DNA of 60,710 nucleotides, the filler included. It is 3 parts of 3 records of this genome, joined end to end, with 100 filler letters (N's around TTAATTAATTAA, not from the genome) between each part and the next. Parts side by side here need not be neighbours in the genome. Positions count along the whole stretch, not along the records: positions 23,573 to 49,321 come from DRR378314_2544; 2 more parts are not named here. One strand, given 5' to 3'. Under the pieces are notes generated by a model. It saw only the letters and a program-made list of their open reading frames with translations, was not told where the DNA came from and searched no databases. This document shows, one piece after another, positions 23,473-52,424 of the stretch. The position numbers were made by a program, and so were the translations under genes. Position 1 is the first letter of the stretch. Every line of letters begins with the position of its first letter.

Positions 23473-23572
23473 NNNNNNNNNNNNNNNNNNNNNNNNNNNN
23501 NNNNNNNNNNNNNNNNTTAATTAATTAANNNNNNNNNNNNNNNNNNNNNNNNNNNNNNNNNNNNNNNNNNNN
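23473..23572. other. Artificial contig spacer
   Basis: N44-TTAATTAATTAA-N44 (six-frame stop linker); GC content and taxon change across it. Confidence 0.97.
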
Positions 23573-32769: not shown

Positions 32770-32798
32770 AAAAAAAGACCGGTCCTGAGACCGGCCTT
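32770..32798 (-). terminator. Terminator closing the kinase/LysM transcription unit
   Basis: Minus strand AAGGCCGGTC-TCAG-GACCGGTCTTTTTTT. Confidence 0.8.
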
Positions 32799-32824: not shown

Positions 32825-33931
32825 TTAGTTGGATGCTGCGTTCAGCTTTTCATTTTGTTCGCGCAGCGTGTCCGAAATAATGGCGTACCATTCGCCGGAT
32901 TCACGCATTTCTATAAGACCCTTATTCATCATCGCGATGTATTCACGCGCGAATGGATTGGTACGATGGGCGAGGAAACTCATCGACGACAAAGTAGATA
33001 CATACGGGTTCTCAACGATGTCAGCCGAGGTCAAACCCATGTCTTTCATGGTCGAGGCAAATAGATCAACTTCGAATGCCGCGACATCCGCAGTACCGGT
33101 CAAAACAGCATCAAGGCATTCACGAGCTGAATTTGGTTGGACTACGGTTGTGTTCTGTCGATTCAGCCCTTGTTCTTCAAGCACCACCATGCTCCAGCCT
33201 GCCATACGACAAACGGTTGAGCCTTCGAGGTCCGTGAAATCTGTCGCTTTTGCGTATTCGCTATCGGGCAGAGTAAAGAAACCACCGACGATATCGTATA
33301 CTGGAACGGAAGCAACAAACTGAGTGCAACGCGCTTCGGTTTCTGCAGACCACTCATACGAGCGGTTGGTACAATCAGGGACGGTCCAGGCGATCGAAAT
33401 ATCAAACGCGCCAAGTGGCAGGAGGGTATCCAGATGCGAGCTCCAGTCATCCACGAAGCTGACTGAATAGTCTCGGCTGTTGCCGGCACGCTGAAGGCTT
33501 GTTGTTGCCAGACGTGTCATGATACCGCCGCCAATCAGCGATTCAGTTGTAAACGGCTCCCATCCGTTTCCTGCAACCATCTTGATCGGTGGCGCATAAA
33601 CATTTGAGCGTTTGACGCTCGCCGCGCGCTTTTCTTCTGCTGCAATCAGTTCCTGCGCGCTCTGGCCGTTGGCCAGGCTGCCATCCTCACAGGGCAGGGC
33701 CAGGACCAGGCCAGTTTCAAGCGAGCCAGGGTTCGTGATCGCGTTGCGGTTCGCATTGAAGATCGGCTGATAATTCGAGGTGCCGTAGGCGGCGATGGCG
33801 ATGGTTGCCAGGGTGTCGCCATCCTGCACTGTATAGTTAGAGCAAGCCTCTTGCGCGGCGGCAGCGCCTGCGCTCAGGGCGGTGAGAGCTGATGCCGACA
33901 GCACTGCTTTCCTCAGTTTCTTGTTAATCAT
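32825..33931 (-). CDS. Periplasmic LysM + solute-binding (family 3-like) domain protein
   Basis: Signal peptide (AAA-QEAC); LysM YTVQDGDTLATIA; SBP-like GNGWEPFT...ECLDAVLTGTADVA...NKGLIEMRESGEW; GGAGG RBS 8 nt before the ATG at 33931. Confidence 0.8.
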   Translation of the reverse strand: MINKKLRKAVLSASALTALSAGAAAAQEACSNYTVQDGDTLATIAIAAYGTSNYQPIFNANRNAITNPGSLETGLVLALPCEDGSLANGQSAQELIAAEEKRAASVKRSNVYAPPIKMVAGNGWEPFTTESLIGGGIMTRLATTSLQRAGNSRDYSVSFVDDWSSHLDTLLPLGAFDISIAWTVPDCTNRSYEWSAETEARCTQFVASVPVYDIVGGFFTLPDSEYAKATDFTDLEGSTVCRMAGWSMVVLEEQGLNRQNTTVVQPNSARECLDAVLTGTADVAAFEVDLFASTMKDMGLTSADIVENPYVSTLSSMSFLAHRTNPFAREYIAMMNKGLIEMRESGEWYAIISDTLREQNEKLNAASN

Positions 33932-33975
33932 GTCCACTTCCTCCAGTGTTTTGTTTTGTCAGGCCAGCTGGGGCC

Positions 33976-35238
33976 TTAGCCATTTTCCATTTGATAGCGC
34001 AGGGCGGTCGAAACGATATCGCGCCACTCGCCAGATTGCTGCATGATCGCCAGACCCTGGTTCAGCGTTTCAAGAACTGCTTCCCCATCAGGACTGTCCT
34101 TGTGCGTCATGACGTTGAGCGATTTGATCGCCGCCAGGTTGGGGTTTTCGATGATCTGATGCTCGTAACCCAAGCGTCCGATTGCCTCGACGGCCAGATG
34201 CGCCTCGATCGCGGCGATATCGGCCGTGCCATCCATGACCGCGTGAAAGCAGTCATCTGGCGAAACAGGGCGCATCAGTGTGATAGCCGGTTCATACAGG
34301 CCAACCGCATCCATATGTGACAGCGACCATCCTTCCGGCCGACAGATCGTGGTGTCGGCGAAATCTGAGTAGGTCAGCGTCTGCTCGTAACCCGATCCGT
34401 CCTTTGCAAAAAACGTGTCTACGACCTCATAAAAAGGGTTTGAGAAGTTGTATGTTTCGCAACGGTTGCGATCGCTTTCAGACAGGCCCTCAGGCTCTTC
34501 GCAATTCGGGCGCGACCAAGGGAATGTTGCGTCAAAGGCTAGGGTCGGCATTAGCAGATCAAGATGCGAAGACCAGTCATTTACGAACTGGATTTTATAT
34601 GGTTGCTCGGGTGCCGCGCGCAGCATCGCTGTTTCGACGAGGTCCGTATAAAGCCCGCGATTTGGCAAAGCCTCATCTGTGAACGGCGCATAGTTGCCAC
34701 CCGTGATCATCAAGATTTGACGGTCACGAATTTCCAGTCGTTCACCACCAGTGGCATCACGGATCAGTGCCGCACCTTCGGCGCGGGCGGCTTCGATCTC
34801 TTTTCGAGCCTCTGCTTTTGCCGCAATCACCGCATCTTCGTTTGCCTTCAGGGCTTCTGCCTCGGCCGCTGCGACGCGGGCCTCAGCCTCGGCAATGGCT
34901 CTCTCGGCGCGCGCTTCGGCGGCCTTAACCAGCTCGGATGCCATTTCAGTCGCCATGCGACCAGCCTCGGTATCCGGTATCAGCGCTACGCGGCCGATAT
35001 CTTCAAGGCAAGGAAATGTTAAGATATCTCCTACACGAATGATATTCGGGTTCGAACCGATGACATCGCGATTTATATCGTAGATCAGCCGGTAGTCCTC
35101 AGTCGCGTAGACTGCGATTGCCAGCTCTCGCAGGCTGTCGCCGCGCTGAATCTCGTAGGTTGAACAGGCCTCTTGCGCCGAAGCCGCGCCTGTTGCAGCT
35201 GCAAGAGCCAGGCTGGATATGATAAGATGGGTTCTCAT
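33976..35238 (-). CDS. Periplasmic LysM + coiled-coil + solute-binding domain protein (paralogue)
   Basis: Signal peptide (ASA-QEAC); LysM YEIQRGDSLRELA; Ala/Glu-rich helical insert; GGNYAPFT...NQGLAIMQQSGEW. Confidence 0.8.
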   Translation of the reverse strand: MRTHLIISSLALAAATGAASAQEACSTYEIQRGDSLRELAIAVYATEDYRLIYDINRDVIGSNPNIIRVGDILTFPCLEDIGRVALIPDTEAGRMATEMASELVKAAEARAERAIAEAEARVAAAEAEALKANEDAVIAAKAEARKEIEAARAEGAALIRDATGGERLEIRDRQILMITGGNYAPFTDEALPNRGLYTDLVETAMLRAAPEQPYKIQFVNDWSSHLDLLMPTLAFDATFPWSRPNCEEPEGLSESDRNRCETYNFSNPFYEVVDTFFAKDGSGYEQTLTYSDFADTTICRPEGWSLSHMDAVGLYEPAITLMRPVSPDDCFHAVMDGTADIAAIEAHLAVEAIGRLGYEHQIIENPNLAAIKSLNVMTHKDSPDGEAVLETLNQGLAIMQQSGEWRDIVSTALRYQMENG

Positions 35239-35261
35239 TGTGTCCTGTTTCTCTGCCTTGT

Positions 35262-36041
35262 TCATGTCTTTGCCGGTTTCACGACAGCGATCGAAATGTT
35301 GTCCTGATCGGGATCAGCCTTGGCGTGCAGTGCTTGAAGAAGCGCGTCAGCAATATCGCGGGCCGGGGATTGATGATGGGTGCGCAGCAAAGTTTCGATC
35401 TCGGAATTGTCGAGATACTGCAGGCCATCGCTACCAAGGATCAGAATATCCGCCAAAACAAGCTCCAGTGGTTGTTCCGGACAATCCACTTTCGGGATCG
35501 CGGCACCCATAATGACCGAAGTCAGCTGATTGCGATCTGGATGCCTCTGCGCTTCATCTGCGCTCAGCAAACCCTGCTCCATCTGCGCGTCGATCATCGG
35601 GGCCATCGAATGATCCTCGTTGATCTGCGACAATGTATCGTCACGAAACAGGTACAACGGGCTGTCACCGATCGAGATCCAGAAGATCTGCTGATCCAGC
35701 ATCAGCATGCCCAGAAGGGTAGAGCCCAAGTTGACCTTGTTTTCCTCGCTATGGCTTCCCATCGCGGCGTTGGCCTGCATCGCGGCCATCGGCAGAGCGT
35801 CGAGCAGAGCGCTCTGGGCAAGGTCGGGCCCATCCAACTGGGCATCCATTGCGTCGCACCATGCAGAAATGACCAGCTGCGAAGCCACATCACCCGCATC
35901 ATGGCCTCCCATACCGTCGGCGACGACGACATATCCCGCGTCCGCAGCGTCAGAGACCCGTGCGGCAATCGCATCTTCCTGCGAGTCGCGCCGACCCTGA
36001 TGCAGGATCAGCGCAATATCATATGCAGGGGTTGCCAGCAT
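35262..36041 (-). CDS. PP2C/PPM-family Ser/Thr phosphatase
   Basis: GRRDSQED, VADGMGGH, GSTL, IGDS, DHS, SDGL, DNIS; start overlaps the FHA stop (TAATG). Confidence 0.93.
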   Translation of the reverse strand: MLATPAYDIALILHQGRRDSQEDAIAARVSDAADAGYVVVADGMGGHDAGDVASQLVISAWCDAMDAQLDGPDLAQSALLDALPMAAMQANAAMGSHSEENKVNLGSTLLGMLMLDQQIFWISIGDSPLYLFRDDTLSQINEDHSMAPMIDAQMEQGLLSADEAQRHPDRNQLTSVIMGAAIPKVDCPEQPLELVLADILILGSDGLQYLDNSEIETLLRTHHQSPARDIADALLQALHAKADPDQDNISIAVVKPAKT

Positions 36042-36991
36042 TAATCGGCATCCCGCCAGTCAAAACCATCATCGCAGAAGGACATGAAACGGATCGACGT
36101 TTCGCTGATGCGGATCAGGTCACCGTTTGACAGGGCGATGGTGCTCAGCACCGGTTTGCCATTCAGACGCACCAAGTTGGCTTTGCCGCCATGACCCAAA
36201 TAGCATTTCCGGTCCTCCGGATCATAAGCGATGACCGCATGGTTGCTGCGCGAGATTCCGGTATCGCCGAAATCCAGCTGAATCGCTTGATCGTCGTTTC
36301 GGCCAATCTGCATCAGCCCTTCGGTCAATGTAACCGCAGCGCCACGGCCCGGACCGGCGGTAACAACCAACCAGCCAACGGGGAAGGTCTGTTGCACAGC
36401 CTCTGCTTTTGCGACGGGTTCTGCGGTTTCGATCAATTCCTGAACGTGGGTGTCAGCCCTTTCAAAGCCCAAGAATGTGGTCTTCACGCGCGAGCGCCGG
36501 TCTTCCACGGGAGCGGCCGGAGCTGTAGGCTCTGGGATCTCCTCGACTATCGCAGGCTCTGGTTCCTGCGCAGGCTCTGCAACAATTTCTACCTCGGCCG
36601 GCGCTTCGGAGACTTCTTCAGGCTCTGTAGTCGCTATTTCAGCCACCGCGGCCAGTGTCTTTTCGTCGTCGTCTTCATCCTCAACATTCAAATGAAGCGT
36701 AACAATCTGCTCGTCTTCTTCTTCAGCTTCTTGTGCTTCAGACGCTTCTTCTTCAACGATCTGATCTTCTTCTTCGAACTCCGGCATAGGGCCTTCGGGG
36801 ATCAATTCGTCGGATTCTTCATAGCTGTCCGAACTCACATTGCCACCCGCTAATGCAGCACGCAGCGCATTAAAGTCGGCAATCGGTTCAGGCTTTTCGT
36901 CCTGTACCGCTCCGGTTTCTACCGCTTCATCTTCTTTCGGTTTGCCGGCACCTTCGAGAAGCCGGCTGAGAGGGCTTTTGTATTTGAACAT
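36041..36991 (-). CDS. FHA domain protein with long acidic disordered N-terminus
   Basis: PVGWLVV..GPGRG, IGR, ISRSNH, N motif (KANLVRLNG). Start reassigned to MFKYK (AAGAAGG RBS). Confidence 0.9.
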   Translation of the reverse strand: MFKYKSPLSRLLEGAGKPKEDEAVETGAVQDEKPEPIADFNALRAALAGGNVSSDSYEESDELIPEGPMPEFEEEDQIVEEEASEAQEAEEEDEQIVTLHLNVEDEDDDEKTLAAVAEIATTEPEEVSEAPAEVEIVAEPAQEPEPAIVEEIPEPTAPAAPVEDRRSRVKTTFLGFERADTHVQELIETAEPVAKAEAVQQTFPVGWLVVTAGPGRGAAVTLTEGLMQIGRNDDQAIQLDFGDTGISRSNHAVIAYDPEDRKCYLGHGGKANLVRLNGKPVLSTIALSNGDLIRISETSIRFMSFCDDGFDWRDAD

Positions 36992-37189
36992 GGTGACGAC
37001 ACCTTCTTTGATTTCTGGTGCGGGACTTACCGCACGGGTCTGCGACAAACCGCTGCCCAAAGGGCAGGGGCACTTATGAATAGGAAACAAGGAAACTCAT
37101 ACTTCGCGACGGGCCGGTTCCCGACGGGGCAACGATGTTGAGGTCGCCCCCAGTACACACACTGGCGATTTTCACTTAAACCGGTGTAA

Positions 37190-39430
37190 TTACTCCTGCG
37201 TTAGCTGCATAACCGCAGTGGCTTCGCCGCCATTGCGCAGTATGTTCAAGCGCGCCTGGGGCTGCTTATCCGAAACAAGTTTTGAGAGCGCGCCATCAAG
37301 GCTTTCCGGCTGATTAATCGCGGTACCAGTCTGTTCTTCGCGCAGCAGCACGTCACCGATCTGCAGGTCGCCCGCGCTGTTTTCCGGGATCGTTGCGACC
37401 ACGGTTTGCCAACCGGCATCTCCAGCATGATGAACATCGAAAGTGTATCCGTTCTGCAGTCCGAACACGCGATGAGCAGGCAGTGCCAGTAACCCGTTTT
37501 GCGCGCGTGTCTGCCCCAATTCACGATAGCGGGCTGCCACACGGATATAGCCATCCGGATCGACCGAGAAATCACTCAGAACCTGCGAGACCAAAGTTGC
37601 ATCCGGGCGGACCGGCTCGCCATTAAGCCTATAAATCGTTGTTCCACGCTTAACCCAATCGCCAATAATTGACATATCGAGATTTGCGTTGACACCATTG
37701 ATCGCAATGACGCTGCCCGTCGCGCTGCGACGCTTGGAGATGTCAAAGGGTACTTCGATATCCCAATGCCCAAAGGCCACCTGATTGCCGGCCAGATTTA
37801 CAGGTGCCGACGAGGGCGTAACTTCGACCTCGTAAACTGCATTTGCGGTCTCGTTCAGCGTGATCTGTGGCTGCAAAGCTTCGGGCTCAACGGAAGCCTC
37901 TGGTTGAGTATCAGCTGTTGCTGGCTCTTCTGACGCAACTTGTGCTTGCTCGACAGGTTCTTCCTGCGTCGTTTCTGTTTGTTTTTCCGGGTTCACCGCT
38001 GTTTCCGGTTCTGCCGCAACCACCTTGGGTTCTTCTTCCAATGCAATCTCAGCTTGTTGTGTCCCGTTGGCGGTTTCAGCGGTCTGCTCGACCGGTTCCG
38101 GTTCTGCATCTTGAGGTGCCTGCGTGATCGGAGCCTGTGCAGTAACCGTACTTGCCTCAGGCGCTGATTTGTCGCCCGACATAATCAAAAACCCACCCGC
38201 TGCGAGCGCCGCCAATACAACCACTGCACCGGCAATTGCCTTGCCGCTGCCACCTGAGCCGCTTTTGACAACGGTATCGACAGCGGCCACGGCTTCGTCC
38301 TTGGGGGCGAACTTGGCAAGATCGTTTTCGGGCTTTTCCTCATTTCCAAGGGCCAGATCGGTGTTCCCGGCTAACAGCGCGGTCACGACGGCCTCGGCAT
38401 TTTCGCTTTCGGCTTTGACCCGTTCTTTTTCTGCCTGCTCGTCCTTGCGGTCCATCCCAACGATCACTGAAACCGGACGGTACGCAAAGCTGTCAAACAT
38501 CACACCCGGACCACGGAACATGCGCAACCAATCCAACGCAGTTTGCAACCGGTCAGTGGTGTGAACCTCCATCGCCTTGTCAATCGCCTCAAGGAACCCG
38601 TCCGGGTACCCTTTGAAACGTCCTGCCAGCGGTGTATATGGATCAGGCTGATCATTGTTGAACGCGTTCAGACGCGTCTGACCATCGATCGGGCGCTCGC
38701 CACTTATGGCGTGATACAAAGTTGCGGCGAGTACATACAGGTCACTACTTGGTCCCTGATCCGCGCCACGCACATAGAACTCGTGCGGGGAATAGCCATC
38801 CTTGATCACCCGCAACGTCAACAGCGCAGCCGACTTGTTTGCCGCTTGTTCACGGGCTGCGCCGAAATCAATCAAGATTGGCTCACCATTCTCATCAATC
38901 AGAATATTGTCGGGCGAGATGTCGCGGTGCAGCATACCGCTTTGGTGTATGAACGACACCGCTGACAGCATCTTTTCAGTGACCTGAACAATGAAGTTCG
39001 GTCCGCTTTGGTTTTCAGGGTTTTCGACATAATCCAGCAGATCGCAACCGCGGATCAGGTCCATCGCGATATAGGCGGTGTTGTTGTCTTCGAACACCTG
39101 ATGCACGTCGACGATATTTGGGTGAACCAACCGCGCATGATTGCGGGCTTCCTGAATGAACAGATCGATAATCGAGCGCAGATCATCCTTGTGATCGGGG
39201 TTGGAAGGCTCGACCAGATCGCCGTTCCGCTGACACAGTGCGCCTGGATAGCATTCTTTAATAACCACATCACGGTCCAGGCTATCGCGGGCCAGATAGG
39301 TTATTCCAAACCCGCCATTGCTGAGAAACCGGAGGATCTCATACTGACCGCGCAAAAGCTTTGCGCCTGGCTGCAGTCCTTCAATCTGAGGTTCGTCGTG
39401 CGTTGCACCGACCGCCTGGTTGTGGCTCAT
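37190..39430 (-). CDS. Membrane Hanks-type Ser/Thr kinase with C-terminal PDZ-like domains
   Basis: GGFGITY, VVIKE, HRDISPDN, DFG, GYSPHE, SDLY; one TM helix (AIAGAVVVLAALAAGGFLIM); acidic linker; PDZ-like GDLQIGDVL...ILRNG. Confidence 0.92.
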   Translation of the reverse strand: MSHNQAVGATHDEPQIEGLQPGAKLLRGQYEILRFLSNGGFGITYLARDSLDRDVVIKECYPGALCQRNGDLVEPSNPDHKDDLRSIIDLFIQEARNHARLVHPNIVDVHQVFEDNNTAYIAMDLIRGCDLLDYVENPENQSGPNFIVQVTEKMLSAVSFIHQSGMLHRDISPDNILIDENGEPILIDFGAAREQAANKSAALLTLRVIKDGYSPHEFYVRGADQGPSSDLYVLAATLYHAISGERPIDGQTRLNAFNNDQPDPYTPLAGRFKGYPDGFLEAIDKAMEVHTTDRLQTALDWLRMFRGPGVMFDSFAYRPVSVIVGMDRKDEQAEKERVKAESENAEAVVTALLAGNTDLALGNEEKPENDLAKFAPKDEAVAAVDTVVKSGSGGSGKAIAGAVVVLAALAAGGFLIMSGDKSAPEASTVTAQAPITQAPQDAEPEPVEQTAETANGTQQAEIALEEEPKVVAAEPETAVNPEKQTETTQEEPVEQAQVASEEPATADTQPEASVEPEALQPQITLNETANAVYEVEVTPSSAPVNLAGNQVAFGHWDIEVPFDISKRRSATGSVIAINGVNANLDMSIIGDWVKRGTTIYRLNGEPVRPDATLVSQVLSDFSVDPDGYIRVAARYRELGQTRAQNGLLALPAHRVFGLQNGYTFDVHHAGDAGWQTVVATIPENSAGDLQIGDVLLREEQTGTAINQPESLDGALSKLVSDKQPQARLNILRNGGEATAVMQLTQE

Positions 39431-39770: not shown

Positions 39771-41060
39771 CTACGTGCCGGTTCTGGGATGCGCCGAAGC
39801 CACTGTACTTCCGGCCCATGCCAAGTTGTCGCTGAGTTGCGCGAGGATGCTTATCGCATCCTTCAGCGGTGCGTCGCCGCTTTCGAATTGAAGCAAAAGC
39901 AGCAAATCGGTCGCCTTTTCGAACTCGGCCGGAATCCAGTCGGCTTCAGGATCGATTTCTGAGCCTGATTCCAACCTTTCGGCAAAGTCTTCGACAATTT
40001 CCTGACAGCTTTGCAAGAAGGTTGCAGGCTCAATATCTGAGCTTTCGCGCAGGTCGTTGTAGATACTTGCAATTGCAGCAAGCCAATCCTCAAGGATAGG
40101 ATTGTCTAGAGGGGGCAGGGCGGTTTCCAAGCTTGCTTGGACCGCATTGCCATCCGCCTCAACATCAACGGCCACAGCTGAACCAGTGAGCTGCTCCAGA
40201 TAAGGCATAAACTCTGCAGCCAGATCTTTTTGTGCGGCTTCCAGATCGTGGCGACGGTAATCAGACGCAAGACGTAACACCTGTTCTGCCAGATTTTGAC
40301 CGCCGCAGGTCTCCCACAGATCAAAATCAGGTTCGGGCTCCTGTTCCATCGCGCGCACGGCAACCGGAGTTCCAATTGGCACGACGGCCTTGAACAGATC
40401 ACCTTTTTCCTTGTTCAAACGGGCCACAACCCGATCCAGCGAATCCCGCACTGGGGGCAAATCAGCATGTGTTACGGCCAACAGGCTGTTGTCGCGCAGT
40501 TTTTGCGGGACTTGTGACCATAGGTGGCGCTCGGTCTCACGCCAGGCGTTGGTGCCGTTGGTACACCAAATCGCGCAGTCCACATATTCCAGCAAACTCA
40601 GGGTCTGCTTGTATGTATCGTCCAGCGCACCGGCACCGGGTAGATCAAACAGCGAAATCTCTTGCAGGGCAGGCGTGTTCAACCCGACCGAGATGAAATC
40701 CGGTTCGTCCGCCGCCGCCTTTTCCAGCGCAATTCCGGAATAAACCTTGGGTTCCTTGTTCCACCAGCCAACTGTTGTTTCTGGTGTTTCAGAAAAGGCC
40801 ACAATGACCAAAGGCAGCTTCAGATGCTGCGGCCCAGTGGGCAGAATGTCAGCCCCTGCCAGCATGTTTGCAAGGCTGGACTTGCCAGCACCAAATTCCC
40901 CTGCAAAACCGATTGATACCGCGTTCGAAAGCCGCTCGGCATGGGCCAACGCGCGGGCGCGCATGTCATCCAGCTCTGCCGAAGAGGGTGCGTTTTCGGT
41001 GGCGGTCAGGAAACGCTCCAACTGGCGCACTTCCTTCTCGGTTCCGGGGAAATCAATCAT
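39771..41060 (-). CDS. Dynamin-like GTPase, type B copy 2
   Basis: G1 GEFGAGKS, G3 DLPG, G4 THAD; WCT...AWRETER shared with 44467-46101; ATGA overlap with the upstream gene. Confidence 0.85.
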   Translation of the reverse strand: MIDFPGTEKEVRQLERFLTATENAPSSAELDDMRARALAHAERLSNAVSIGFAGEFGAGKSSLANMLAGADILPTGPQHLKLPLVIVAFSETPETTVGWWNKEPKVYSGIALEKAAADEPDFISVGLNTPALQEISLFDLPGAGALDDTYKQTLSLLEYVDCAIWCTNGTNAWRETERHLWSQVPQKLRDNSLLAVTHADLPPVRDSLDRVVARLNKEKGDLFKAVVPIGTPVAVRAMEQEPEPDFDLWETCGGQNLAEQVLRLASDYRRHDLEAAQKDLAAEFMPYLEQLTGSAVAVDVEADGNAVQASLETALPPLDNPILEDWLAAIASIYNDLRESSDIEPATFLQSCQEIVEDFAERLESGSEIDPEADWIPAEFEKATDLLLLLQFESGDAPLKDAISILAQLSDNLAWAGSTVASAHPRTGT

Positions 41061-43099
41061 TCTGCGGCCTCTGCCTGTCGCGTGTCCATGGGTGCGGCTC
41101 CATGTACCGCACTCAGTTCATCGCCGATGCGCCGGGCTTGGTCAACCGCACGTTGCGCATCGGTGCGCGCATTGGTGCCATCAGGACCCGCACGGTGTTC
41201 CAGATGACCGGCAAGAAGCGCCAGATAGTGATCCAGGACAGTTTTCATCCGTTCGATCAGATCACTTCTGGCGGTATCGACCAGATCGTCGCCGATCATC
41301 TCGAACTCTTGAACGATCATCTTTTCTGCACGGTTCAGTACACTGCGGCGTGAAATCAGCCGCGACAGCCATGTCACACGCAGCTCGACCGTAATACCAC
41401 GCGTTAGCGCGCTGGTGTCCGGACGGAACCAACGCACAGCGCTAGTGTTCATGCGGTTATCAACCGGTTCCTGCCAGCCGGGCAGGGCACGCAGGGAGGC
41501 GTTGCTTTGCATGTCGATCGCATAAAGCTCGCTGAGCATCCGCTGACGAACTACCTGGGTTGCACCCTGAACCAATTCACGCATTCGTTCACGCAGTGGT
41601 GTAAAGTTCAGCTCGGTGTCACCATCCTTGGCCAACAGAGGGGATTGACCATCCGGGCCACGGACAACAATCGAAACAGCCTCGGACACCGTGTCATCCA
41701 TCACGCCCCGTAAATTGGCCAGTACATCGTCCATATCGTTGGTAATGGCTTCAGATTTCTCGGCAATCAAGGCGCGCAGGTCCGCAAGCGTCTTGTTGTT
41801 TTCTTCTATATCGGCTGTGTCTGGCCCATCTTGATCCTCGATCGCGCGCAGCCGTGCTGAGCTACGCTCAAGCTCACCCTGGGCAAAGCTGTTTAGATGC
41901 TGCCACGCCATATTGAGCTGTTCTTGGCGTGGACCTTCGGTCAGGGCTTTGGTCACATGGCGGCGCAGATCAGGCAACCCAGATGCGATCATGGCAGCAA
42001 AGCGCAATACACCCTCACGACTGATAGGGCCGGGGCCTTGTTTGATCTCTTCAACACCATCTAGATATTGCTTCATCTGCTGAGGATGGGCGCGAAGCCA
42101 TGCGAGAATCTGATCATGATCAATTCCCGTTTCATCACCGGTCAGGGCGTAATGCGCCCATTGAGCGCTGCCCATAAGGACATTGATGTCCGAATTCCCG
42201 AGGGCCTGCTCAAGCCCGTCCATCACGTCGGCACGGACCTTTGTGGCATCGTCAGCGCCGCCGCCCAATTCGTCCACACGGTTAATGAAGACCACGATCT
42301 GGCCAAGTTCCAAAGCCTGCATCAAGCGGAACAGTTTCAGGTCGGCGCGCGACAACGCCTGATGCGCCGACAGAACTACAACAAAGAAATCTGACTCTTT
42401 TAAGTATTGCCGCGAGATCTCTTCACGTATCAACAGCGGGTCATTGACGCCGGGCGTATCGGTGACTGTTATAGGATAAGGAAAATGGCCGATGTCGAAA
42501 TAGACCTCGGCTTTGCGTGTGATATCGCTGTAAAGACCCCGATCAGAACCGGGGTCATACTGATCACCATCCGTCGGATCATCCCCCGCACAGACATAGC
42601 GTGCAAGATCATCCGAATTCAGTTCATCCAGATCGTGATGCTGACCCAGCAGGTGTTTATAGCTTTCGCCCAGACGCAGCTTGGCGCGGGTTTTCATCGC
42701 CTCGACCTGCTCTTCGATCATTTCACGCTTATAGCTGTCCTCCTCATCGGGGAACATATTGCGCAGCTCTTCACCCTCGGCGATCAGTGCTTGCCATTGG
42801 CGATTGTCGAAGAAACGAAACTCGGCACCCGACGACCGGCCGGACGGATGACCAAAATGCATGTCGGTTATAACTGTGGTCCAGGGATTTACATCCGAAG
42901 GCAGAAACTCTGCCTGCCCGGTGAACCCATTGATCAGTCGGGACTTACCGGCCTTAATCTGGCCTACGAACGCAATCGAAGGTTTGAGGTTCGATAGATC
43001 GTCAATGATGCGCGAGATGAAGTGACGTGTTTCGTCATTGCTCATCCCGTTCATGTCTTCTGCGATGCGAATAAGCTCGCGGCGGCTCAACTCACTCAT
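41057..43099 (-). CDS. Dynamin-like GTPase, type A copy 2
   Basis: G1 GQIKAGKS, LPSDVNPWT, G3 DTPGVND, G4 NRVD; helical C-terminal stalk. Confidence 0.88.
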   Translation of the reverse strand: MSELSRRELIRIAEDMNGMSNDETRHFISRIIDDLSNLKPSIAFVGQIKAGKSRLINGFTGQAEFLPSDVNPWTTVITDMHFGHPSGRSSGAEFRFFDNRQWQALIAEGEELRNMFPDEEDSYKREMIEEQVEAMKTRAKLRLGESYKHLLGQHHDLDELNSDDLARYVCAGDDPTDGDQYDPGSDRGLYSDITRKAEVYFDIGHFPYPITVTDTPGVNDPLLIREEISRQYLKESDFFVVVLSAHQALSRADLKLFRLMQALELGQIVVFINRVDELGGGADDATKVRADVMDGLEQALGNSDINVLMGSAQWAHYALTGDETGIDHDQILAWLRAHPQQMKQYLDGVEEIKQGPGPISREGVLRFAAMIASGLPDLRRHVTKALTEGPRQEQLNMAWQHLNSFAQGELERSSARLRAIEDQDGPDTADIEENNKTLADLRALIAEKSEAITNDMDDVLANLRGVMDDTVSEAVSIVVRGPDGQSPLLAKDGDTELNFTPLRERMRELVQGATQVVRQRMLSELYAIDMQSNASLRALPGWQEPVDNRMNTSAVRWFRPDTSALTRGITVELRVTWLSRLISRRSVLNRAEKMIVQEFEMIGDDLVDTARSDLIERMKTVLDHYLALLAGHLEHRAGPDGTNARTDAQRAVDQARRIGDELSAVHGAAPMDTRQAEAAE

Positions 43100-43169
43100 A
43101 AGATTTACCCTGGTAACTCGTATTATATATCTAGTTTTGCAAAATGGACACTATTGGGCAGGAACGCGG

Positions 43170-44015
43170 TCATTCAACGGCGCTTTTTAGGGACTTCCAA
43201 AGGTTGACGACGGCACCCAGTTTGCGGGCGTCATGAAAAGCGGCTGCAACCTCGGCATCGTCGTGAACGATCGCAAGGCCAACGCCTTGCCCTCCGGATG
43301 GGCGCATAACGATAAGTTGTGGTTGCGATAAAGTATCAGACCCATCGACTTGCCAGCTGGACAAATCTTGGGTGAGCCGAGCCAATAGATCTTTGTCGGG
43401 ATTTGCTTTCTGACCTTCGGCACAAAGCCCGTCAAGCTTGGCTTCTTCGTTCTGTTCTTCAATCAGAAAACGCCCCAGCGCAAAGCGATCGGCACCGTCA
43501 TAGAACGCTTCGGCAACACCTGATGGGCCCCGAGACGTTGGTTCTGGTACAGCATCCGGGACCACAGACATCCGTGGTTCTTCCGGCAAATCAATTCTGG
43601 CGCAGGCTGCTTCTACCTCGGAAAAGGTTATACCGACATCATCCGCTTCAAGCGCCGTATCGGGCCTGAGCGAAACCAATTCCAACGGACCGGGCGCAAC
43701 GGCGATATCTGACACTAGACGGGCCAGCTGATCGGTCAGGTGCTCACGTGCCTCGGTTTCGAAATCTGGCAGGGGGCCTTCGACACATCGGAAAACATCG
43801 GTAATCCGTGAGCTGTTCACCTCAACAGCAAGCATGCCACCGTCTGCCGCCATGAATTCCAACCTCCGAGGCAGGATTGTCCTGCGGATTGCAGTCAATA
43901 CCTCATCACGCCTTGCCTGCGCCGTATCACCAGACAGACAAACCGTCGGAGACAATCGCGCGACCGAGGATCGTCCGATATCTTCGAGCAATTCCAGTAT
44001 TTCGCTATCCATCAT
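43170..44015 (-). CDS. Hypothetical protein, possibly with a C-terminal roadblock-like domain
   Basis: Co-oriented within the operon, GGGG RBS; fold suggested from secondary-structure pattern only. Confidence 0.7.
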   Translation of the reverse strand: MMDSEILELLEDIGRSSVARLSPTVCLSGDTAQARRDEVLTAIRRTILPRRLEFMAADGGMLAVEVNSSRITDVFRCVEGPLPDFETEAREHLTDQLARLVSDIAVAPGPLELVSLRPDTALEADDVGITFSEVEAACARIDLPEEPRMSVVPDAVPEPTSRGPSGVAEAFYDGADRFALGRFLIEEQNEEAKLDGLCAEGQKANPDKDLLARLTQDLSSWQVDGSDTLSQPQLIVMRPSGGQGVGLAIVHDDAEVAAAFHDARKLGAVVNLWKSLKSAVE

Positions 44016-44039
44016 GCCGTGAACCCCCTCTGGTCCAGT

Positions 44040-44441
44040 CTAAACTGCGGCAGCCACCGTGCCGAGGCTGAGATGTGATTTTGTAAGTGCATGCCCAATA
44101 TTTGCGCTGTCATGACAGATATAACAGACAACGTGATCCGGGTATTTCGGTGTTCTCAGAAAGATGTGCAAACGATCATTGGCAAACACCGCGATTTCCC
44201 CAAATCCAGGGTGTTCCGTTTCGCCTATCTCTGCATTGCGCAACAGCTCCTCAAAGCCTTTTGCACCCCGTCCTTGAAACAGATTGGCAACCGAAAGCGC
44301 AAGATTCTCAAGTGCATCAGAGCTTTCGCGGTCTGATGCCTCAACTCCCAGCAACATTCCAGTTTCCATATCAACATACCCGGCTGCGATGCAGTCGGGT
44401 ATGGTCTCGATGGCCGAGGTCAGGGCGGATTCTATCGACAT
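44040..44441 (-). CDS. Roadblock/LC7 (MglB-like) domain protein
   Basis: 133 aa; IPDCIAAGYVDMETGMLL...FGEI...HIFLR...ANIGHAL fits the roadblock pattern. Confidence 0.72.
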   Translation of the reverse strand: MSIESALTSAIETIPDCIAAGYVDMETGMLLGVEASDRESSDALENLALSVANLFQGRGAKGFEELLRNAEIGETEHPGFGEIAVFANDRLHIFLRTPKYPDHVVCYICHDSANIGHALTKSHLSLGTVAAAV

Positions 44442-44466
44442 TCAGGTGCCCGCCTTTAATTGCATG

Positions 44467-46101
44467 TCAGATCGCATGCCACTCCGCTCCACTCGTTTTG
44501 TTGGCATCCGGAACTGCCCGCAGCGCCGCTTTGGAATTGCGGGTGATCTGCTCCTGCGCAATCTGATCATACTCGGACAGAAACGCTGCAAAGGCGCTTT
44601 TCAGGCCCTGCGCATCGTCTGGCAGGCTTTCGCGGGCTACGATTTCGCTCCACATTTCTGAGGCGCTGAGGGGCGATTCCACAGGATTGCCCACTTGGTC
44701 TTCAGAGGCCGCTCCATTGATCACGGTTTCTCCGTTCAACTCAACCACCTGACCCGGCGTGAGCGAATTGGACTCTGGTTCCGGCTCGTATTCGTCAGTC
44801 GATTCCTCAGGCTGCTCCGCAAGCAAAGACGTAATCGATGAGACTGATACTTCGAGCTCCGATGCTTCACCCTCGTCATCGGTCGAATTTTCATCCGACG
44901 CCGATGCTTCAACCGTTGCTTCTTGGCCATCCTCGGGGGCCAGAACGATCAACTCGGCGTCTTCCTGATCCTCCTCCTCATCATCCATGAAGGCGAACTC
45001 ATCCACATCATGTGCAGGGTTCGCCAGAATGTTCAGATCCAACGGATCTTCGGATTGGTCCGAGAACAGGGCGCGCAGATCTTCCTCAGCCGGTTCCGCC
45101 TCAGATACCATTTCGGCGCGCATTCGTTCAGCTTCGTCCACATCAATCCGAGCGCGTTCAACATCTTCCGTACGTCGTTCCACGCGGGCAGGGCGTACCG
45201 GGAAGCTGGTGACAACATCAGTGTTCTGATCGGATGAACCCTCAGCCAGAGGATCATGCATCGTCAATGGAACATCTTCGGTGCGACTTTCCGGGCGCAA
45301 GGGGCTTACCTTGGGCGCATCAGACAAAGACTTATCAATTTGATATCTGGCCAGCATATCGGCACGGTTGTCCATGATCTGCTCGGTGATCTCCAGAAAA
45401 CTGTCGACCATCTTGCCACCGCCGCTGCGCGACCAAAGTTCGGCGTCACCCGTTTTGTCACGGGCCATAATGGCATCACGCGCCGAAAACAGGACTGTGC
45501 GATTGAACAGATGACCTGCTTCTCGGTTCACGCGACGCAGAACCTTTTGCCGGTCTTTCTGACCCAAAGCATCTGCACGCGTGACCAGCAAAATTGATTT
45601 GTTTTGCAGACGTTCAGGAAGCGAGACCCAAGTTGCACGCTCGGTCTCACGCCAGGCTTGGGTCGAGTGCGTGCACCATAATACACCATTGGCTTGACCA
45701 ACTGCGCGTTGCCAGACATCGGTCGAGATCTTTGGATCCGAGATGCCGGGGGTGTCGATCAGATCAACGGCCTCAAGAATATCGGCTTCCAGGAAGATAC
45801 GAACAAACTGTGCGTCGTTGACACCAACCTGTTCAAGTTCATCAAGCTCGATATTCTGCGTGCTTCCATCGTGCCGCTTAATATAGGCTGGCCGATTGCC
45901 CCAACTGAACCAAACTGGCGGCAGCTGAGTTGCCGTGACCTGTGTGGGCAAGGCCTGTTTTCGCAGCAAGAAGTTCATCAAAGTCGACTTGCCTGCACTG
46001 AATTCTCCCATAAGCGCAAACACAGGCTTGCGGCGGGACCACTGCTCGATGCGGTTCCAGGCCTTGGGAGAGACGAAGCGGGTTTGTGATTTATTTACCA
46101 T
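44467..46101 (-). CDS. Dynamin-like GTPase, type B copy 1, with long acidic C-terminal region
   Basis: G1 GEFSAGKS, LPTQVTAT, G3 DTPG, G4 TRAD; D/E/S-rich tail. Confidence 0.88.
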   Translation of the reverse strand: MVNKSQTRFVSPKAWNRIEQWSRRKPVFALMGEFSAGKSTLMNFLLRKQALPTQVTATQLPPVWFSWGNRPAYIKRHDGSTQNIELDELEQVGVNDAQFVRIFLEADILEAVDLIDTPGISDPKISTDVWQRAVGQANGVLWCTHSTQAWRETERATWVSLPERLQNKSILLVTRADALGQKDRQKVLRRVNREAGHLFNRTVLFSARDAIMARDKTGDAELWSRSGGGKMVDSFLEITEQIMDNRADMLARYQIDKSLSDAPKVSPLRPESRTEDVPLTMHDPLAEGSSDQNTDVVTSFPVRPARVERRTEDVERARIDVDEAERMRAEMVSEAEPAEEDLRALFSDQSEDPLDLNILANPAHDVDEFAFMDDEEEDQEDAELIVLAPEDGQEATVEASASDENSTDDEGEASELEVSVSSITSLLAEQPEESTDEYEPEPESNSLTPGQVVELNGETVINGAASEDQVGNPVESPLSASEMWSEIVARESLPDDAQGLKSAFAAFLSEYDQIAQEQITRNSKAALRAVPDANKTSGAEWHAI

Positions 46102-46109
46102 AACTCTTC

Positions 46110-48110
46110 TTATGCTGCTTCGTTACTAAGATCTTTCAGGATGTCACCCAGAATGTCGTCACGCGATTTCTGTGGTTTCTGCTCGGCGATCTGCGCTGCA
46201 GCCCTGTCAGGTGAATGCGAGATGCTGAGTAACGTGTCTTTCTGCTCGGCCATGAAATCAGTCAGCGTGGCGCGCACGTTTTCCAAGACGGCGGCAATCT
46301 GATTTTCCTCGATGTCCTTGGTGATCGAGTTTGCCTCGGACGCAATCAGACGTGTGTAGTCTGCGGCGTAGGCCTCGAAGCCTTTTCGGCGCTGCCACCA
46401 ACGACGCCACCATGTGCTTTGCAGGTCAAGCGCGATGGTGCGCCCAATCCCCAAAGGCGGTGGCACGCGCGGCACAATTGGGGCTTCGATGTTGAATTCA
46501 CCTAGATGGTTGCCCAACAGTTTCTGGTATAACGCTTCTACATCCGCTGCGGCGGACGCATATAGCACCCCGGCATCCTTGCGCATCGAACGCGCAAAGC
46601 TGAAGTAAGCGGCCTTTTGCAAGGTCCGTAGCCCAGCCGGGTCGTATTGCCACGTGCCCTGCTCACCGTTTTGTTCCAGATGTGAGATCAGCGAATCCGT
46701 CGCGCGCTTGACAAAGTTTGCCTCGGCCGAGGCCAGCCTCTCCAACACTTTATCGCGCAGTTTGGTTGTCAGTTCCGAGGTCTTCTTTTCGTACTCGGCT
46801 GAAACTTTCGCGATCGCTTCATCGGGCGATGCACCATCCAAATCCCGGACGATCCCGTCCGAATTTGACAGCGTTTTGGCCACGGCCGTCGCTCGAATTT
46901 GGCTGGCAATGTTGCGCGCACGATGGCGTACGCGATCCAGTAGACGTGTTCCTGCACCCTCGGCAATGCGCTCATTCATTGCGAGCAGCAAATCAGGCAA
47001 TCCTGAAAGCGCCCAGATCTTGTCCAGCGAGGCAGCTTGATCACCAAAACCGGCAGCCAGATAAAAAGTGTTTAGCGCGTCACGCGATTCTTCGGTCAGG
47101 ATGTCCGGATTTCCGGTAATCGCTGCCTCAGCCCAAAGCGCGCTGCCAAAGACAACGCTGGTACTTGCGTCAATGTTGTTCTGCTTCAGTGTGTCCTGAA
47201 TACGATCCCGAATCTCTGGGACCTGATTGACCGGGTCCGACAGCTCGTCGATGCGATTCACAAACAGAATGATCTGGCGATTTTCGAACTGAGCGATAAT
47301 CCGCATCAGCGCCATATCCATTGTGGTCAGCGCCTGACTGGCGGCCAGAACGACGATACACACCTCTGACCCGCGAAGGCTGCGCAACGTGATCTGCTCA
47401 CGTACCATGAAGGTATCGTTTACGCCGGGCGTATCGCAAAGTTTGAGCGATATCGGATATTGAGGGATATCCATATAAAGCTCTGCTGATTTGGTCACAT
47501 CGGCAAAACGGCCTGTCTTAGGGTCAATATCCGGATCGTCTTCGTCCCCAAGGCAAACATACCGCTGCACCAATTCGTCATCGAAGTAATCGTACTGGTG
47601 GCTTTGTCCAAGAATCAGGTCGAAATGCTTGCCCAGCCGTTCTTCTGACTTGGCCTTCATTTCGCCAATTTGACGACGGATGTCATCCATCTCATCATCC
47701 GCACCAGCGCGGTTGGCCAGCTCGCCCAGGCGCCCGCCCCCAACCATCAGATTGTCCCATTCTTCCTGTTCGAAGAAGGTGAATTTTGACCTGGTGTCCC
47801 CTTCCGTCCGGGTGTTGATGTTCAGCGTGGTAACTACTGATGTCCACGGGTTCACATCTGACGGCAACAGGTTTGGCCGCCCCGCCAGAATGTTCACGAT
47901 CGAAGATTTCCCGGCCTTCACCTGCCCCACCATTGTGACGCTTGCCGAGAAGTTTTCCATCTTGGTCTTGAGCGCAGCCAGCCGCGCGGATGAACGCGCA
48001 TCCGCCACCTCTGTCAGTTGATCGATCTGTGTCGTCAGCGAGGTCATTGTCTCTGTCATCTCGGACAGAGCCTCGTTTCCTACAGACAGAAGGTGGTCGT
48101 TACGCGCCAT
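46110..48110 (-). CDS. Dynamin-like GTPase, type A copy 1
   Basis: G1 GQVKAGKS, LPSDVNPWT, G3 DTPGVND, G4 NRID; helical stalk with STWWRRWWQRRK; GGAGG RBS. Confidence 0.9.
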   Translation of the reverse strand: MARNDHLLSVGNEALSEMTETMTSLTTQIDQLTEVADARSSARLAALKTKMENFSASVTMVGQVKAGKSSIVNILAGRPNLLPSDVNPWTSVVTTLNINTRTEGDTRSKFTFFEQEEWDNLMVGGGRLGELANRAGADDEMDDIRRQIGEMKAKSEERLGKHFDLILGQSHQYDYFDDELVQRYVCLGDEDDPDIDPKTGRFADVTKSAELYMDIPQYPISLKLCDTPGVNDTFMVREQITLRSLRGSEVCIVVLAASQALTTMDMALMRIIAQFENRQIILFVNRIDELSDPVNQVPEIRDRIQDTLKQNNIDASTSVVFGSALWAEAAITGNPDILTEESRDALNTFYLAAGFGDQAASLDKIWALSGLPDLLLAMNERIAEGAGTRLLDRVRHRARNIASQIRATAVAKTLSNSDGIVRDLDGASPDEAIAKVSAEYEKKTSELTTKLRDKVLERLASAEANFVKRATDSLISHLEQNGEQGTWQYDPAGLRTLQKAAYFSFARSMRKDAGVLYASAAADVEALYQKLLGNHLGEFNIEAPIVPRVPPPLGIGRTIALDLQSTWWRRWWQRRKGFEAYAADYTRLIASEANSITKDIEENQIAAVLENVRATLTDFMAEQKDTLLSISHSPDRAAAQIAEQKPQKSRDDILGDILKDLSNEAA

Positions 48111-48112
48111 GG

Positions 48113-48526
48113 TCAGCCTCCGGTACCAGTTGCAGCGAATTGGTTCCCTGCCCCGTCGGGCAAGCTCGCAAGCGTGTCGATGCGTGCGATCAGGTCCAAT
48201 GCGTTACCGAGGATCACAGCCTCGGTTTGCGGTGAAATTGATTCGTATGCGAAAGAATCAGCCAAAACCTCGATGGAACTGAAACCTTCACCATTCTCCA
48301 GACAGGCGACACGTCGCCCCGTTGGAAAATCATCTGACTTGTGAGCAGGCAATGGCATGCGGGCATTGGCCAGCAAATAGCGATTGCCTGCATGAGTTCT
48401 TAGTGCGACGCCGAAACCTGTGCCAGGGTGCTGGCGGTTCAGGGTTTTCAGCTCGCCGATGAAACTATCACGAGCAAGACTTACAACGTCATGCTCGGAA
48501 GCAGCGGATTTGATCTGGTTGGTCAC
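48113..48526 (-). CDS. Hypothetical protein, first gene of the dynamin operon
   Basis: Ends 2 nt before the first dynamin ATG. Probable GTG start at 48526 after AAGGG; the ORF track extends to 48607. Confidence 0.6.
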   Translation of the reverse strand: MTNQIKSAASEHDVVSLARDSFIGELKTLNRQHPGTGFGVALRTHAGNRYLLANARMPLPAHKSDDFPTGRRVACLENGEGFSSIEVLADSFAYESISPQTEAVILGNALDLIARIDTLASLPDGAGNQFAATGTGG

Positions 48527-49278
48527 GACAGAGACCCTTATTCTGGAGTTGAGCAGAAACTCGCACGGCGCCCGAAGGCAAAAAGACTCATTAACTCCTG
48601 CGCCCAATCAATTACGATTACCGCGGTGTTATTTTGACGCGAATAGGATATTTTGGCGTTTGAAATGTGGCACAATTATGATTGCCACTCAATCTTAAGT
48701 AGAAAGCTTCAATTTACCTGCTTGCCGTGCCAGCGATTACCGGTGTCGTGGACAGAGCGAAACAAGAGGTAAATGCCGGGCTTGTTAACTTTAAAATTAG
48801 AATATAACATATTGTTTGCAATATTTAATTATTAGATACATGATGTCAGTTCAGGGCTCGATGTATTTGGGCTGAGGTTGCATATACTCTATTCTGAAAC
48901 TCCTGCGGAATTACCAACACCCCAACGATGTCCGTCTCACTCAACGTATGCGAGATAATTTTTTACCCCTCAAACGGTCGCAATGTCCCCTAATTAGAAA
49001 CAAAAAATTGTCGAATATTTTCCACCTTGATCGAGTCATCAAGCGAGTGGTTACACCCTGCGCCCCTTGCTTTCATAGGCGGTTTAAGCACCATGCAAGC
49101 ATCATATTTTGCTGTCATGCATCTGTGTTCCGCTCAAATAGAGCCCGGTGAAAAACAATTTGTCACTTCTTTGTTTCCATAGACGCAATAATAATCTTGT
49201 GTTTTGCGCGACTTTACCTCTCGCACTCACGCAAAAGCTTTGCTATTCAGCGCCTCGTCGATGCTTCGGCATCAGGTT

Positions 49279-49321: not shown

Positions 49322-49421
49322 NNNNNNNNNNNNNNNNNNNNNNNNNNNNNNNNNNNNNNNNNNNNTTAATTAATTAANNNNNNNNNNNNNNNNNNNNNNN
49401 NNNNNNNNNNNNNNNNNNNNN
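49322..49421. other. Artificial contig spacer
   Basis: N44-TTAATTAATTAA-N44. Confidence 0.97.
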
Positions 49422-49856
49422 GATGTTGAAATAGAAATAGCTGCCCATGCCGCAGCCCGCATAGACACCGACCTGACCCTTCAGGCTTTCGGGCGTGTGG
49501 CCGGCATCCTCCATCGCACCCCAGGCGACCTCGAGGAATTTGCGGTGCTGGGGGTCGAGGATGGAGGCTTCCTTGGGGGAGAAGCCGAAGAACTCCGCGT
49601 CGAACGTGTCAAACCCCTGTAGCGGAGCCGCAGAGGGCACGTAGTTTGGATCGCGCAGCACTTCGGCACGTTCACCGGCGGCCAGCAAGCTGTCTTCGTC
49701 CTGGATCTCGATGGATTCTATGCCGTCGCGTAGATTGGTCCAGAAGGCACGGATGGAGTCGGCCCCGGGTAGGGCAACGGACATGCCGACCACGGCGATA
49801 TCGTCGGTGCTGTAGCGGTCCCGCTGTTCCGATTCATATTTTGTCATATTGCCCAT
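49422..49856 (-). CDS. Type I polyketide synthase, N-terminal ketosynthase fragment (truncated by contig end)
   Basis: DIAVVGM...PGA...FWTNLRDG...FDAEFFGFSPKEA..LDPQHRKFLE...VGVYAG. Confidence 0.9.
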
Positions 49857-51521: not shown

Positions 51522-51639
51522 CTAATCTCGCCTCACTTAGACCTAAATCCGAGGGTAGCAGTATATGACAGCTCTGCCATATGTACCCTGCAAGAAACAA
51601 TATTTACTAACCAGCCGATGAAAAATGATCTGATGCGCC

Positions 51640-52416: not shown

Positions 52417-52424
52417 CGTGGGCT

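Follow-up and report, generated by a model that had tools for sequence, protein, structure and literature searches.

A duplicated pair of dynamin-family GTPase genes with probable Roadblock-type and kinase neighbours in Rhodobacteraceae

Operon-paired dynamin-like GTPases are known from Campylobacter jejuni, where GTPase activity and lipid binding both depend on hetero-oligomerisation of the two dynamin-like proteins (DLPs), and DLP1 and DLP2 both possess a neck and a trunk (PMC6104087). Here we describe, in a window of 60,710 nucleotides (the whole stretch of DNA that was analysed), a locus in which such a pair is doubled: four dynamin-family GTPase genes, named A1, B1, A2 and B2, lie with two genes for predicted Roadblock-type proteins (RB and U281) and with kinase, FHA and phosphatase genes. 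The Campylobacter structure (5owv) is the best PDB sequence match of A1 (E 2e-8) and one of its top fold matches (Z 21.8); the present locus differs from it in that the B proteins are apparently trunkless and one of them degenerate, and in its additional Roadblock-type and kinase genes. The locus is real and conserved, and apparently it has not been described in print: no paper on it was found in the literature, a search in which supplements were not covered and subscription journals mostly not, so that transcriptome tables may list its genes, while 10.1101/2022.06.24.497576 concerns other taxa. It is a variant of the paired bacterial dynamins, whose four-GTPase form is described here together with its probable ancestry and its gene fusions.

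Other described systems resemble single parts of this arrangement. The bacterial dynamin-like protein (BDLP) of Nostoc (2j68/2j69) and IniA of M. smegmatis (6j72) share the fold of A1 over its whole length, with 548 and 495 residues aligned, at 13-15% identity. We know of no Roadblock or phospho-switch partners for either protein. In the LeoA/LeoB/LeoC genes of enterotoxigenic Escherichia coli (ETEC), DLP genes likewise stand in tandem and one partner is non-canonical, and their models give weak profile matches here; LeoB and LeoC together make up one split DLP, complete with trunk (PMC4159319). In our locus no trunk gene follows B, where Roadblock-type genes come next, and the reading of B as one part of a split gene like LeoB/LeoC was discarded on this ground. 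The coupling of a GTPase to a Roadblock protein recalls Myxococcus MglA/MglB and Rag/Ragulator, MglB being a Roadblock GTPase-activating protein (GAP) and Roadblock complexes being often GAPs or guanine nucleotide exchange factors (GEFs), as stated in PMC9481161. Instead of a Ras-like small GTPase, all four GTPases here are Dynamin_N proteins, the annotated loci show no recurring GTPase family besides this one, and a GAP or GEF role is putative. Finally, the RdcA-RdcB-DgcE system of E. coli places a dynamin homologue within a regulatory circuit, RdcA (YjdA/CrfC) acting as a GTP-sensing switch (PMC13463826). It differs in possessing a single DLP and a defined output enzyme and in falling outside the A and B clades described below; the CrfC model scores 18 bits here, at a cut-off of 1146.

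The duplicated gene pair

An earlier sequence-only reading of this stretch had proposed an ancient duplication of a dynamin A/B pair. The four open reading frames (ORFs) on which it was based are all present on the minus strand, and each passes Pfam Dynamin_N (39.8-54.1 bits, cut-off 27). The six motifs given for the A proteins were found in A1 and A2, and GEF(S/G)AGKS in B1 and B2; the motif WCT...AWRETER is visible in both B proteins, although its spacer is of four residues and not three, so that the literal pattern fails. A1 and A2 are 28% identical over 619 columns (E 3e-64) and B1 and B2 29% identical over 218 columns (E 5e-26), the latter similarity being confined to the G domain, while A and B align with each other only at E 0.001 or weaker. 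The proposed divergence of the C-terminal halves is thus correct for the B proteins, whose halves are unrelated, but not for A1 and A2, which still align over most of their length.

The phylogeny of the G domains supports an old origin of the copies. In a joint tree of 76 rows, built with the quick LG+G4 setting of IQ-TREE from 24 family loci and 7 outgroup rows, 31/31 A rows formed one group (Shimodaira-Hasegawa-like approximate likelihood ratio test, SH-aLRT, 99) and 37/38 B rows another (88). The subclades are mirrored: A1 (98) corresponds to B1 (93) and A' to B', and those second B genes that are orphans fall together with B2 (91). The tree is unrooted and no root is claimed, as the outgroup rows are not monophyletic; one B' protein (L099), wrongly placed because its extract was short, was dropped from the approximately unbiased (AU) test. 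Separate A and B trees made with FastTree, which omit 19 loci, agree with the joint tree. The grouping that the sequence-only reading predicted, A1 with A2 and B1 with B2, is thereby borne out. When the window-type copies were forced to be sisters, the topology was rejected both for A1+A2 (p-AU 3e-9) and for B1+B2 (p-AU 5e-5). The outgroup included three tandem dynamin-family genes of other lineages carried by a Calditerrivibrio plasmid (L223:3132-8968).

At the DNA level the copies share short matches alone, the best being 26 nucleotides at 92% and 49 nucleotides at 76%, and because similarity is limited to such stretches the duplication must be old. A recent tandem copy or an assembly duplicate, already dismissed in the sequence-only reading, can therefore be set aside on the weak DNA similarity, the AU tests and the presence of both A1 and A2 in 63/63 Ruegeria genomes searched.

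Adjacency and co-evolution, as expected for a heterotypic pair of the DLP1/DLP2 type, were evaluated on 120 family loci, each annotated over up to ~20 kb. A B gene comes directly after 134 of the 138 A genes (A1-B1 107, A2-B2 12, A'-B' 13, with 2 more from a genome that branches deeply); of the other four, two lie at contig ends, one reflects an artefact of ORF order and one is a third A gene that has degenerated. Over 133 adjacent pairs the A and B distances are correlated with rho 0.91, a value to which shared ancestry adds, against a permutation maximum of 0.19. From this analysis it is evident that an A/B gene pair was duplicated before these loci diversified and that A and B have co-evolved since.

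Architecture of the proteins and inequality of the pairs

The AlphaFold2 model of A1 (predicted local distance difference test, pLDDT, 91.4) is that of a complete BDLP, with a G domain bearing a long insert, a neck, a trunk and a W/R-rich putative paddle near residues 562-575. Foldseek gave Nostoc BDLP as its best match (2j69, E 4e-14), the comparison with this protein (VIA) reached Z 18.4 over the 548 aligned residues with a root-mean-square deviation (rmsd) of 5.9, and SynDLP, C. jejuni DLP1, IniA and mitofusins were also matched. The helical neck and trunk that follow the G domain are thus predicted by the model in A1, and in A2 by homology. Among the A proteins G1-G3 are kept in 84/84 and NRxD in 82/84, and 357-434 residues (median 387) follow G4. 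The W/R-rich motif at the trunk tip is present in 92/109 A1 and 11/14 A2 proteins, with a different wording in the putative paddle of A2, and its pattern was not matched in 13 A' proteins. The tip lies at the place expected for lipid binding, and it may act as a paddle.

The B proteins, on the other hand, appear to be G domains without trunk or paddle, which departs from the canonical BDLP architecture. The residues that follow G4 in B1 vary from 83 to 626 (median 166), many orthologues are just ~270-330 amino acids long, and no invariant column exists beyond residue 304 of the B1 alignment; in the copy of the window residues 301-450 contain 30-38% D/E. A short motif of B1, V-x-P-x-R-V at residues ~302-307 (gene at 44467-46101), is kept in 82/110 proteins with P304 invariant, and is a candidate docking motif. 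For the C-terminal region of B2 an atlas search returned scores of 0.80 or less.

The two pairs, to judge from their motifs and gene company, are not equivalent. All of G1-G4 are intact in 107/110 B1 proteins, whereas B2 keeps G1, G3 and G4 in 13/13 but the switch-I (G2) Thr, which marks an active TRAFAC GTPase, in only 1/13. This Thr is missing from the B2 of the window and from its Ruegeria orthologues; 55/64 B2 orthologues have LPTGPQHLKLP at the place at which LPTQVTATQLP stands in 67/68 B1 proteins. None of 77 orphan B2 proteins has all four motifs (switch-I Thr in 5/77, G3 in 3/77), and neither does any of 13 B' proteins. This asymmetry bears on the idea that A1-B1 and A2-B2 are independent and equivalent membrane complexes, encoded in one operon but serving under different conditions. 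Strict cognate pairing and co-evolution agree with that idea, as does the separation of A2-B2 from A1-B1 in several genomes (L083, L087, L088, L145-L147), but we consider it improbable, given that switch I is missing in 12/13 B2 proteins and that 77 B2-type genes persist with no A2 in front, from which it follows that B2 has a role for which A2 is dispensable.

The commonest form of the locus has one A and two B genes (75/120 loci), a single pair being found in 25 and two complete pairs of different classes in 16, the latter in at least two gene orders. Four loci (L069, L070, L072, L073) keep the order of the window with only A2 missing; for this reason, and from the tree, a loss of A2 from a four-GTPase ancestor is favoured, and the window probably shows that ancestral form. 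Of the functional proposals of the sequence-only reading, sub-functionalisation receives support in one particular sense, the loss of switch I in B2 and its retention in B1. One obligate A1-B1-A2-B2 assembly of four subunits could be read from the 16 two-pair loci and from the retention of A1 and A2 in every Ruegeria genome searched, yet we find it scarcely credible, because A2 is missing in most relatives (75/120 loci with one A and two B, 25 with a single pair) while the more decayed B2 stays. Two loci (L075:15745-17454, plus strand; L076:4014-5999, minus strand) carry, after A1-B1-RB-U-A2-B2, one more dynamin of the A type that is degenerate and lacks the P-loop of the family, which brings them to five dynamin-like genes each.

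What accompanies the second B gene was also counted. U281 is present in 87/92 loci with a B2-type gene and in 1/28 without, and FHA together with PP2C in 81/92 and 0/28 respectively, counts that come from related, non-independent genomes and are limited by the annotated stretch. On this co-occurrence, B2 keeps company with the regulatory genes and not with A2.

Roadblock-type proteins, fusions and the kinase trio

According to its model (pLDDT 86.2), the C-terminal domain of U281 has a Roadblock fold. The best fold match is M. xanthus MglB (Z 8.4, rmsd 4.1, 112 aligned), which is again rank 1 in Foldseek (E 2.5e-3), and most of the top 20 fold matches are Roadblock or profilin-type. For the N-terminal domain, atlas leads to PatA_N/DUF4388 (0.84-0.87) found no support in profile comparisons, and a Pfam scan of 36 U281 relatives gave scattered weak matches alone. 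RB is probably a Roadblock/LC7-type protein: its close relatives carry Roadblock-type database names, 3/35 family members match Robl_LC7 weakly (best E 0.0017), and profile alignment to a conserved Roadblock subfamily gives a weak E of 0.0047 at a probability of 3%. RB itself has no Pfam match, and a PDB sequence search with its alignment returned nothing credible (phospholipase A2, E 0.2-0.8). RB or its sister subfamily was found in 107/120 loci.

Longer proteins containing such domains were searched for with a combined Roadblock alignment, and the best 120 of 129 matches were listed. Among these 120 there are at least 44 fusions of a B-type G domain with a Roadblock domain (40 B1 and 4 B') and at least 30 fusions of a kinase with a Roadblock domain, the kinase being 44-54% identical to that of the window; in both kinds the listed Roadblock domains belong to the sister subfamily. 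The 40 listed fusions that exceed 100 bits on the B1 profile keep G1 in 38, G2 in 35 and G3 in 38 cases. Five fusions occur in context behind an A gene (L143, L144, L152, L153 and L100), and one of these, in L100 (6247-8094, minus strand), is a single ORF of 615 amino acids that joins B', a dual-specificity phosphatase and a domain of the RB subfamily itself. A further candidate, P0383, resembled an RB-U281 fusion but is best read as the artefact of a frameshift, and it is left out of the counts. The Rag GTPases have the layout of a G domain followed by a C-terminal Roadblock domain. The B-Roadblock fusions repeat it, and Rag C-terminal domain chains are among the fold matches of U281. Together the fusions indicate shared complexes of Roadblock proteins, B-type GTPases and the kinase, with GAP activity remaining conjecture.

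The kinase of the window has one predicted transmembrane helix near residue 399 (hydropathy 2.49), and its C-terminal region is presumably periplasmic. Relatives of the FHA protein keep the phospho-binding residues in 72/83 and the Thr-containing motif before the domain in 70/83 cases. An FHA protein with such a Thr motif resembles GarA/OdhI; the OdhI model scores 23.9 bits here, under its threshold of 200. Because periplasmic binding proteins of differing kinds follow the module in a minority of loci, the inputs may be exchangeable, as gene order suggests. In several loci (L086, L103, L110, L112, L113, L121, L179) the LysM-binding proteins after the module give way to a large secreted protein of presumed solute-binding type and to paired secreted proteins that are helical and sensor-like. 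In L100, L083, L088, L145 and L146 the place of the kinase trio is taken by a dual-specificity phosphatase together with a protein resembling ABC ATPases.

This company makes it conceivable that the locus is a signalling GTPase switch and not a membrane machine, the A proteins going to the membrane according to the GTP level and relaying a signal, as E. coli RdcA or MglA with MglB do, and the Roadblock proteins and kinase trio forming the circuit. The neighbourhoods are indeed dominated by Roadblock, kinase, FHA, PP2C, dual-specificity phosphatase and response regulator genes, the same Roadblock subfamily is fused elsewhere to receiver and PatA_N domains, and for E. coli a dynamin homologue that senses GTP has been described (PMC13463826). 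However A1 has a full trunk with a conserved W/R tip (92/109) and matches BDLP over its whole length, and the 120 loci contain no conserved output enzyme, so that we judge such a switch rather unlikely.

Setting, distribution and proposed working of the locus

Three separate pieces are joined in the window by N44-TTAATTAATTAA-N44 linkers at 23473-23572 and 49322-49421, and the G+C content rises from ~30% to ~55% across the first linker. The dynamin locus belongs to the second of these pieces (23573-49321); for the genes on it, matches to Ruegeria records reach 96-100% (L001). Its genes, all read from the minus strand, are given in Table 1 in their order of reading; the successive gaps from U164 onward are 2, 8, 25, 24, 70, -4, 340, 99, -1, -4 and 38 nucleotides, the start of B2 overlapping the stop of A2 by 4 nucleotides.

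Table 1. Genes of the dynamin locus in the window, in order of reading
Gene	Position	Strand	Description
U164	48113..48607	-	small conserved protein without family assignment; opens the unit in Ruegeria-type loci
A1	46110..48110	-	666 amino acids; predicted full-length BDLP-type dynamin, G1-G4 intact
B1	44467..46101	-	544 amino acids; dynamin-family G domain, G1-G4 intact, acidic variable tail
RB	44040..44441	-	probable Roadblock/LC7-type protein
U281	43170..44015	-	two domains; C-terminal one (~160-281) with predicted Roadblock fold
A2	41057..43099	-	680 amino acids; second full-length BDLP-type paralogue, G1-G4 intact; fold by homology to A1
B2	39771..41060	-	429 amino acids; trunkless G domain without switch-I Thr (G1, G3, G4 kept); candidate pseudo-GTPase
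Kinase	37190..39430	-	Ser/Thr (Hanks) kinase; Pfam Pkinase 98.6 bits
FHA protein	36041..37090	-	Pfam FHA; long acidic linker, conserved Thr-containing motif before FHA domain
PP2C	35262..36041	-	PP2C-type Ser/Thr phosphatase; Pfam PP2C_2; NCBIfam Stp1 134 bits, under cut-off
LysM/solute-binding protein 1	33976..35265	-	secreted, LysM + solute-binding domain; weak SBP_bac_3 and LysM matches; accessory
LysM/solute-binding protein 2	32825..33937	-	secreted, LysM + solute-binding domain; 31% identity to protein 1

U164 stands upstream of A1 in 66/70 loci and has no match in Pfam, NCBIfam or PADLOC scans; its true start may be further downstream, one relative being annotated at 137 amino acids. LysM/solute-binding protein 1, which overlaps the PP2C stop, was found in 4/120 loci. 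Terminator-like hairpins follow LysM/solute-binding protein 2 at 32798 and 32494, and promoter and terminator scans gave chance-level results. Bases 1-23472 (~30% G+C) look like a different organism, with peptidases, a penicillin amidase and a diadenylate cyclase; the third piece, unrelated to the dynamin locus, begins with the start of a polyketide synthase cut by the linker (49422-49856, minus strand), which polysaccharide biosynthesis-type genes adjoin (50055-53411).

In a genome scan the order from A1 to the kinase was kept in 62/70 loci, the eight exceptions being contig ends, one case of insertion, one locus without an RB match and two without A2. On a complete R. conchae replicon the unit is surrounded by housekeeping genes. 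Relatives of A1 were found in 104/401 genomes of a Rhodobacteraceae sample, about a quarter; in a class-wide sample the B1 profile matched 2/401 genomes, both already among the family set, and in a phylum-wide sample the A1 profile matched 14/401, ten at E < 1e-100 and four near 1e-9. This suggests that the locus is restricted to Rhodobacteraceae. The three-GTPase form also occurs on Leisingera plasmids of 33-179 kb (L132, H6-H17), two of which carry it in one strain. Among irregular copies, A1 is broken by an insertion in L063 (7766-11191), separated from B1 by ~4.3 kb in L048 (3742-8087) and split over two frames in L111, and the B genes are fragmented in L118.

The distribution is also informative on a possible role as an anti-phage membrane guard, of the kind represented by Eleos (LeoA/LeoBC) and by DynA of B. 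subtilis. DynA reportedly protects against phage lysis (PMC8844932), and all four GTPases match the LeoA or LeoBC models of PADLOC (19-35 bits). These matches are weak and lie mostly in the G domain, and with B apparently trunkless, and no trunk gene after it, there is no LeoA accompanied by a complete second DLP; moreover the presence in 63/63 Ruegeria genomes, the fixed order (62/70 loci) and the housekeeping surroundings speak against it, defence islands being typically patchy in distribution. A defence role is in our opinion very improbable.

We propose that the locus encodes a resident, phospho- and Roadblock-regulated BDLP machine of Rhodobacteraceae with a pseudo-GTPase arm, a reading on which we consider the balance to be about even. 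The A proteins would bind the inner membrane via the W/R-rich trunk tip and then polymerise or tether. A1-B1 would be the working engine, B1 activating A1 via a G-G heterodimer, a step modelled on the Campylobacter pair, without shaping the membrane itself. B2 as a pseudo-GTPase may be a scaffold, a nucleotide sensor or a competitor, and the second pair a regulatory arm. RB and the C-terminal domain of U281 may dimerise into an MglB/Ragulator-like GAP or a docking platform linking kinase and GTPases; the kinase, FHA protein and PP2C would switch the machine upon an envelope signal, and its output may be local membrane remodelling or repair.

Several points weigh against this proposal, which is built from sequences, gene context and predicted models, fold models having been made of A1 and U281 and the proteins RB, B1, A2 and B2 judged by sequence. 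The gap of 340 nucleotides between B2 and the kinase leaves a single transcript a presumption, and 55/75 kinase relatives have no transmembrane helix, which weakens envelope sensing as a general input. Nearly every fused Roadblock domain comes from the sister subfamily, which aligns only weakly to the RB of the window (E 0.0047). Grouping the orphan B genes with B1 was not rejected (p-AU 0.11), so that the loss of A2 is favoured and unproven. There is also a precedent for a dynamin homologue that works purely as a switch in signalling (PMC13463826).

A tentative extension, possible in our view, is that a GTPase-Roadblock hub arose convergently from dynamin parts: an RB-U281 heterodimer would hold B1 (active) and B2 (pseudo) in a Rag/Ragulator-like layout, with Ser/Thr phosphorylation relayed by the FHA protein, and thereby supply on/off subunits for remodelling dynamins. 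If true, this would be a first case, as far as our searches reach, of a dynamin controlled by a Roadblock GAP/GEF and a pseudo-GTPase.

How paired bacterial dynamins are switched on is largely open, and both the gene order of this locus and the recurrent fusions point to candidate regulators: G-domain partners that appear trunkless, a putative pseudo-GTPase, the Roadblock-type proteins and the trio of kinase, FHA protein and phosphatase. The hosts are marine bacteria that are abundant and can be cultivated, and most of the components are soluble and of a size that allows their direct reconstitution. The commoner operon with three GTPases has a puzzling third one, which the four-GTPase form would explain as what is left of a second pair. 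If Roadblock proteins do regulate a dynamin G domain, the theme of MglA/MglB and Rag/Ragulator would reach a second class of GTPases.

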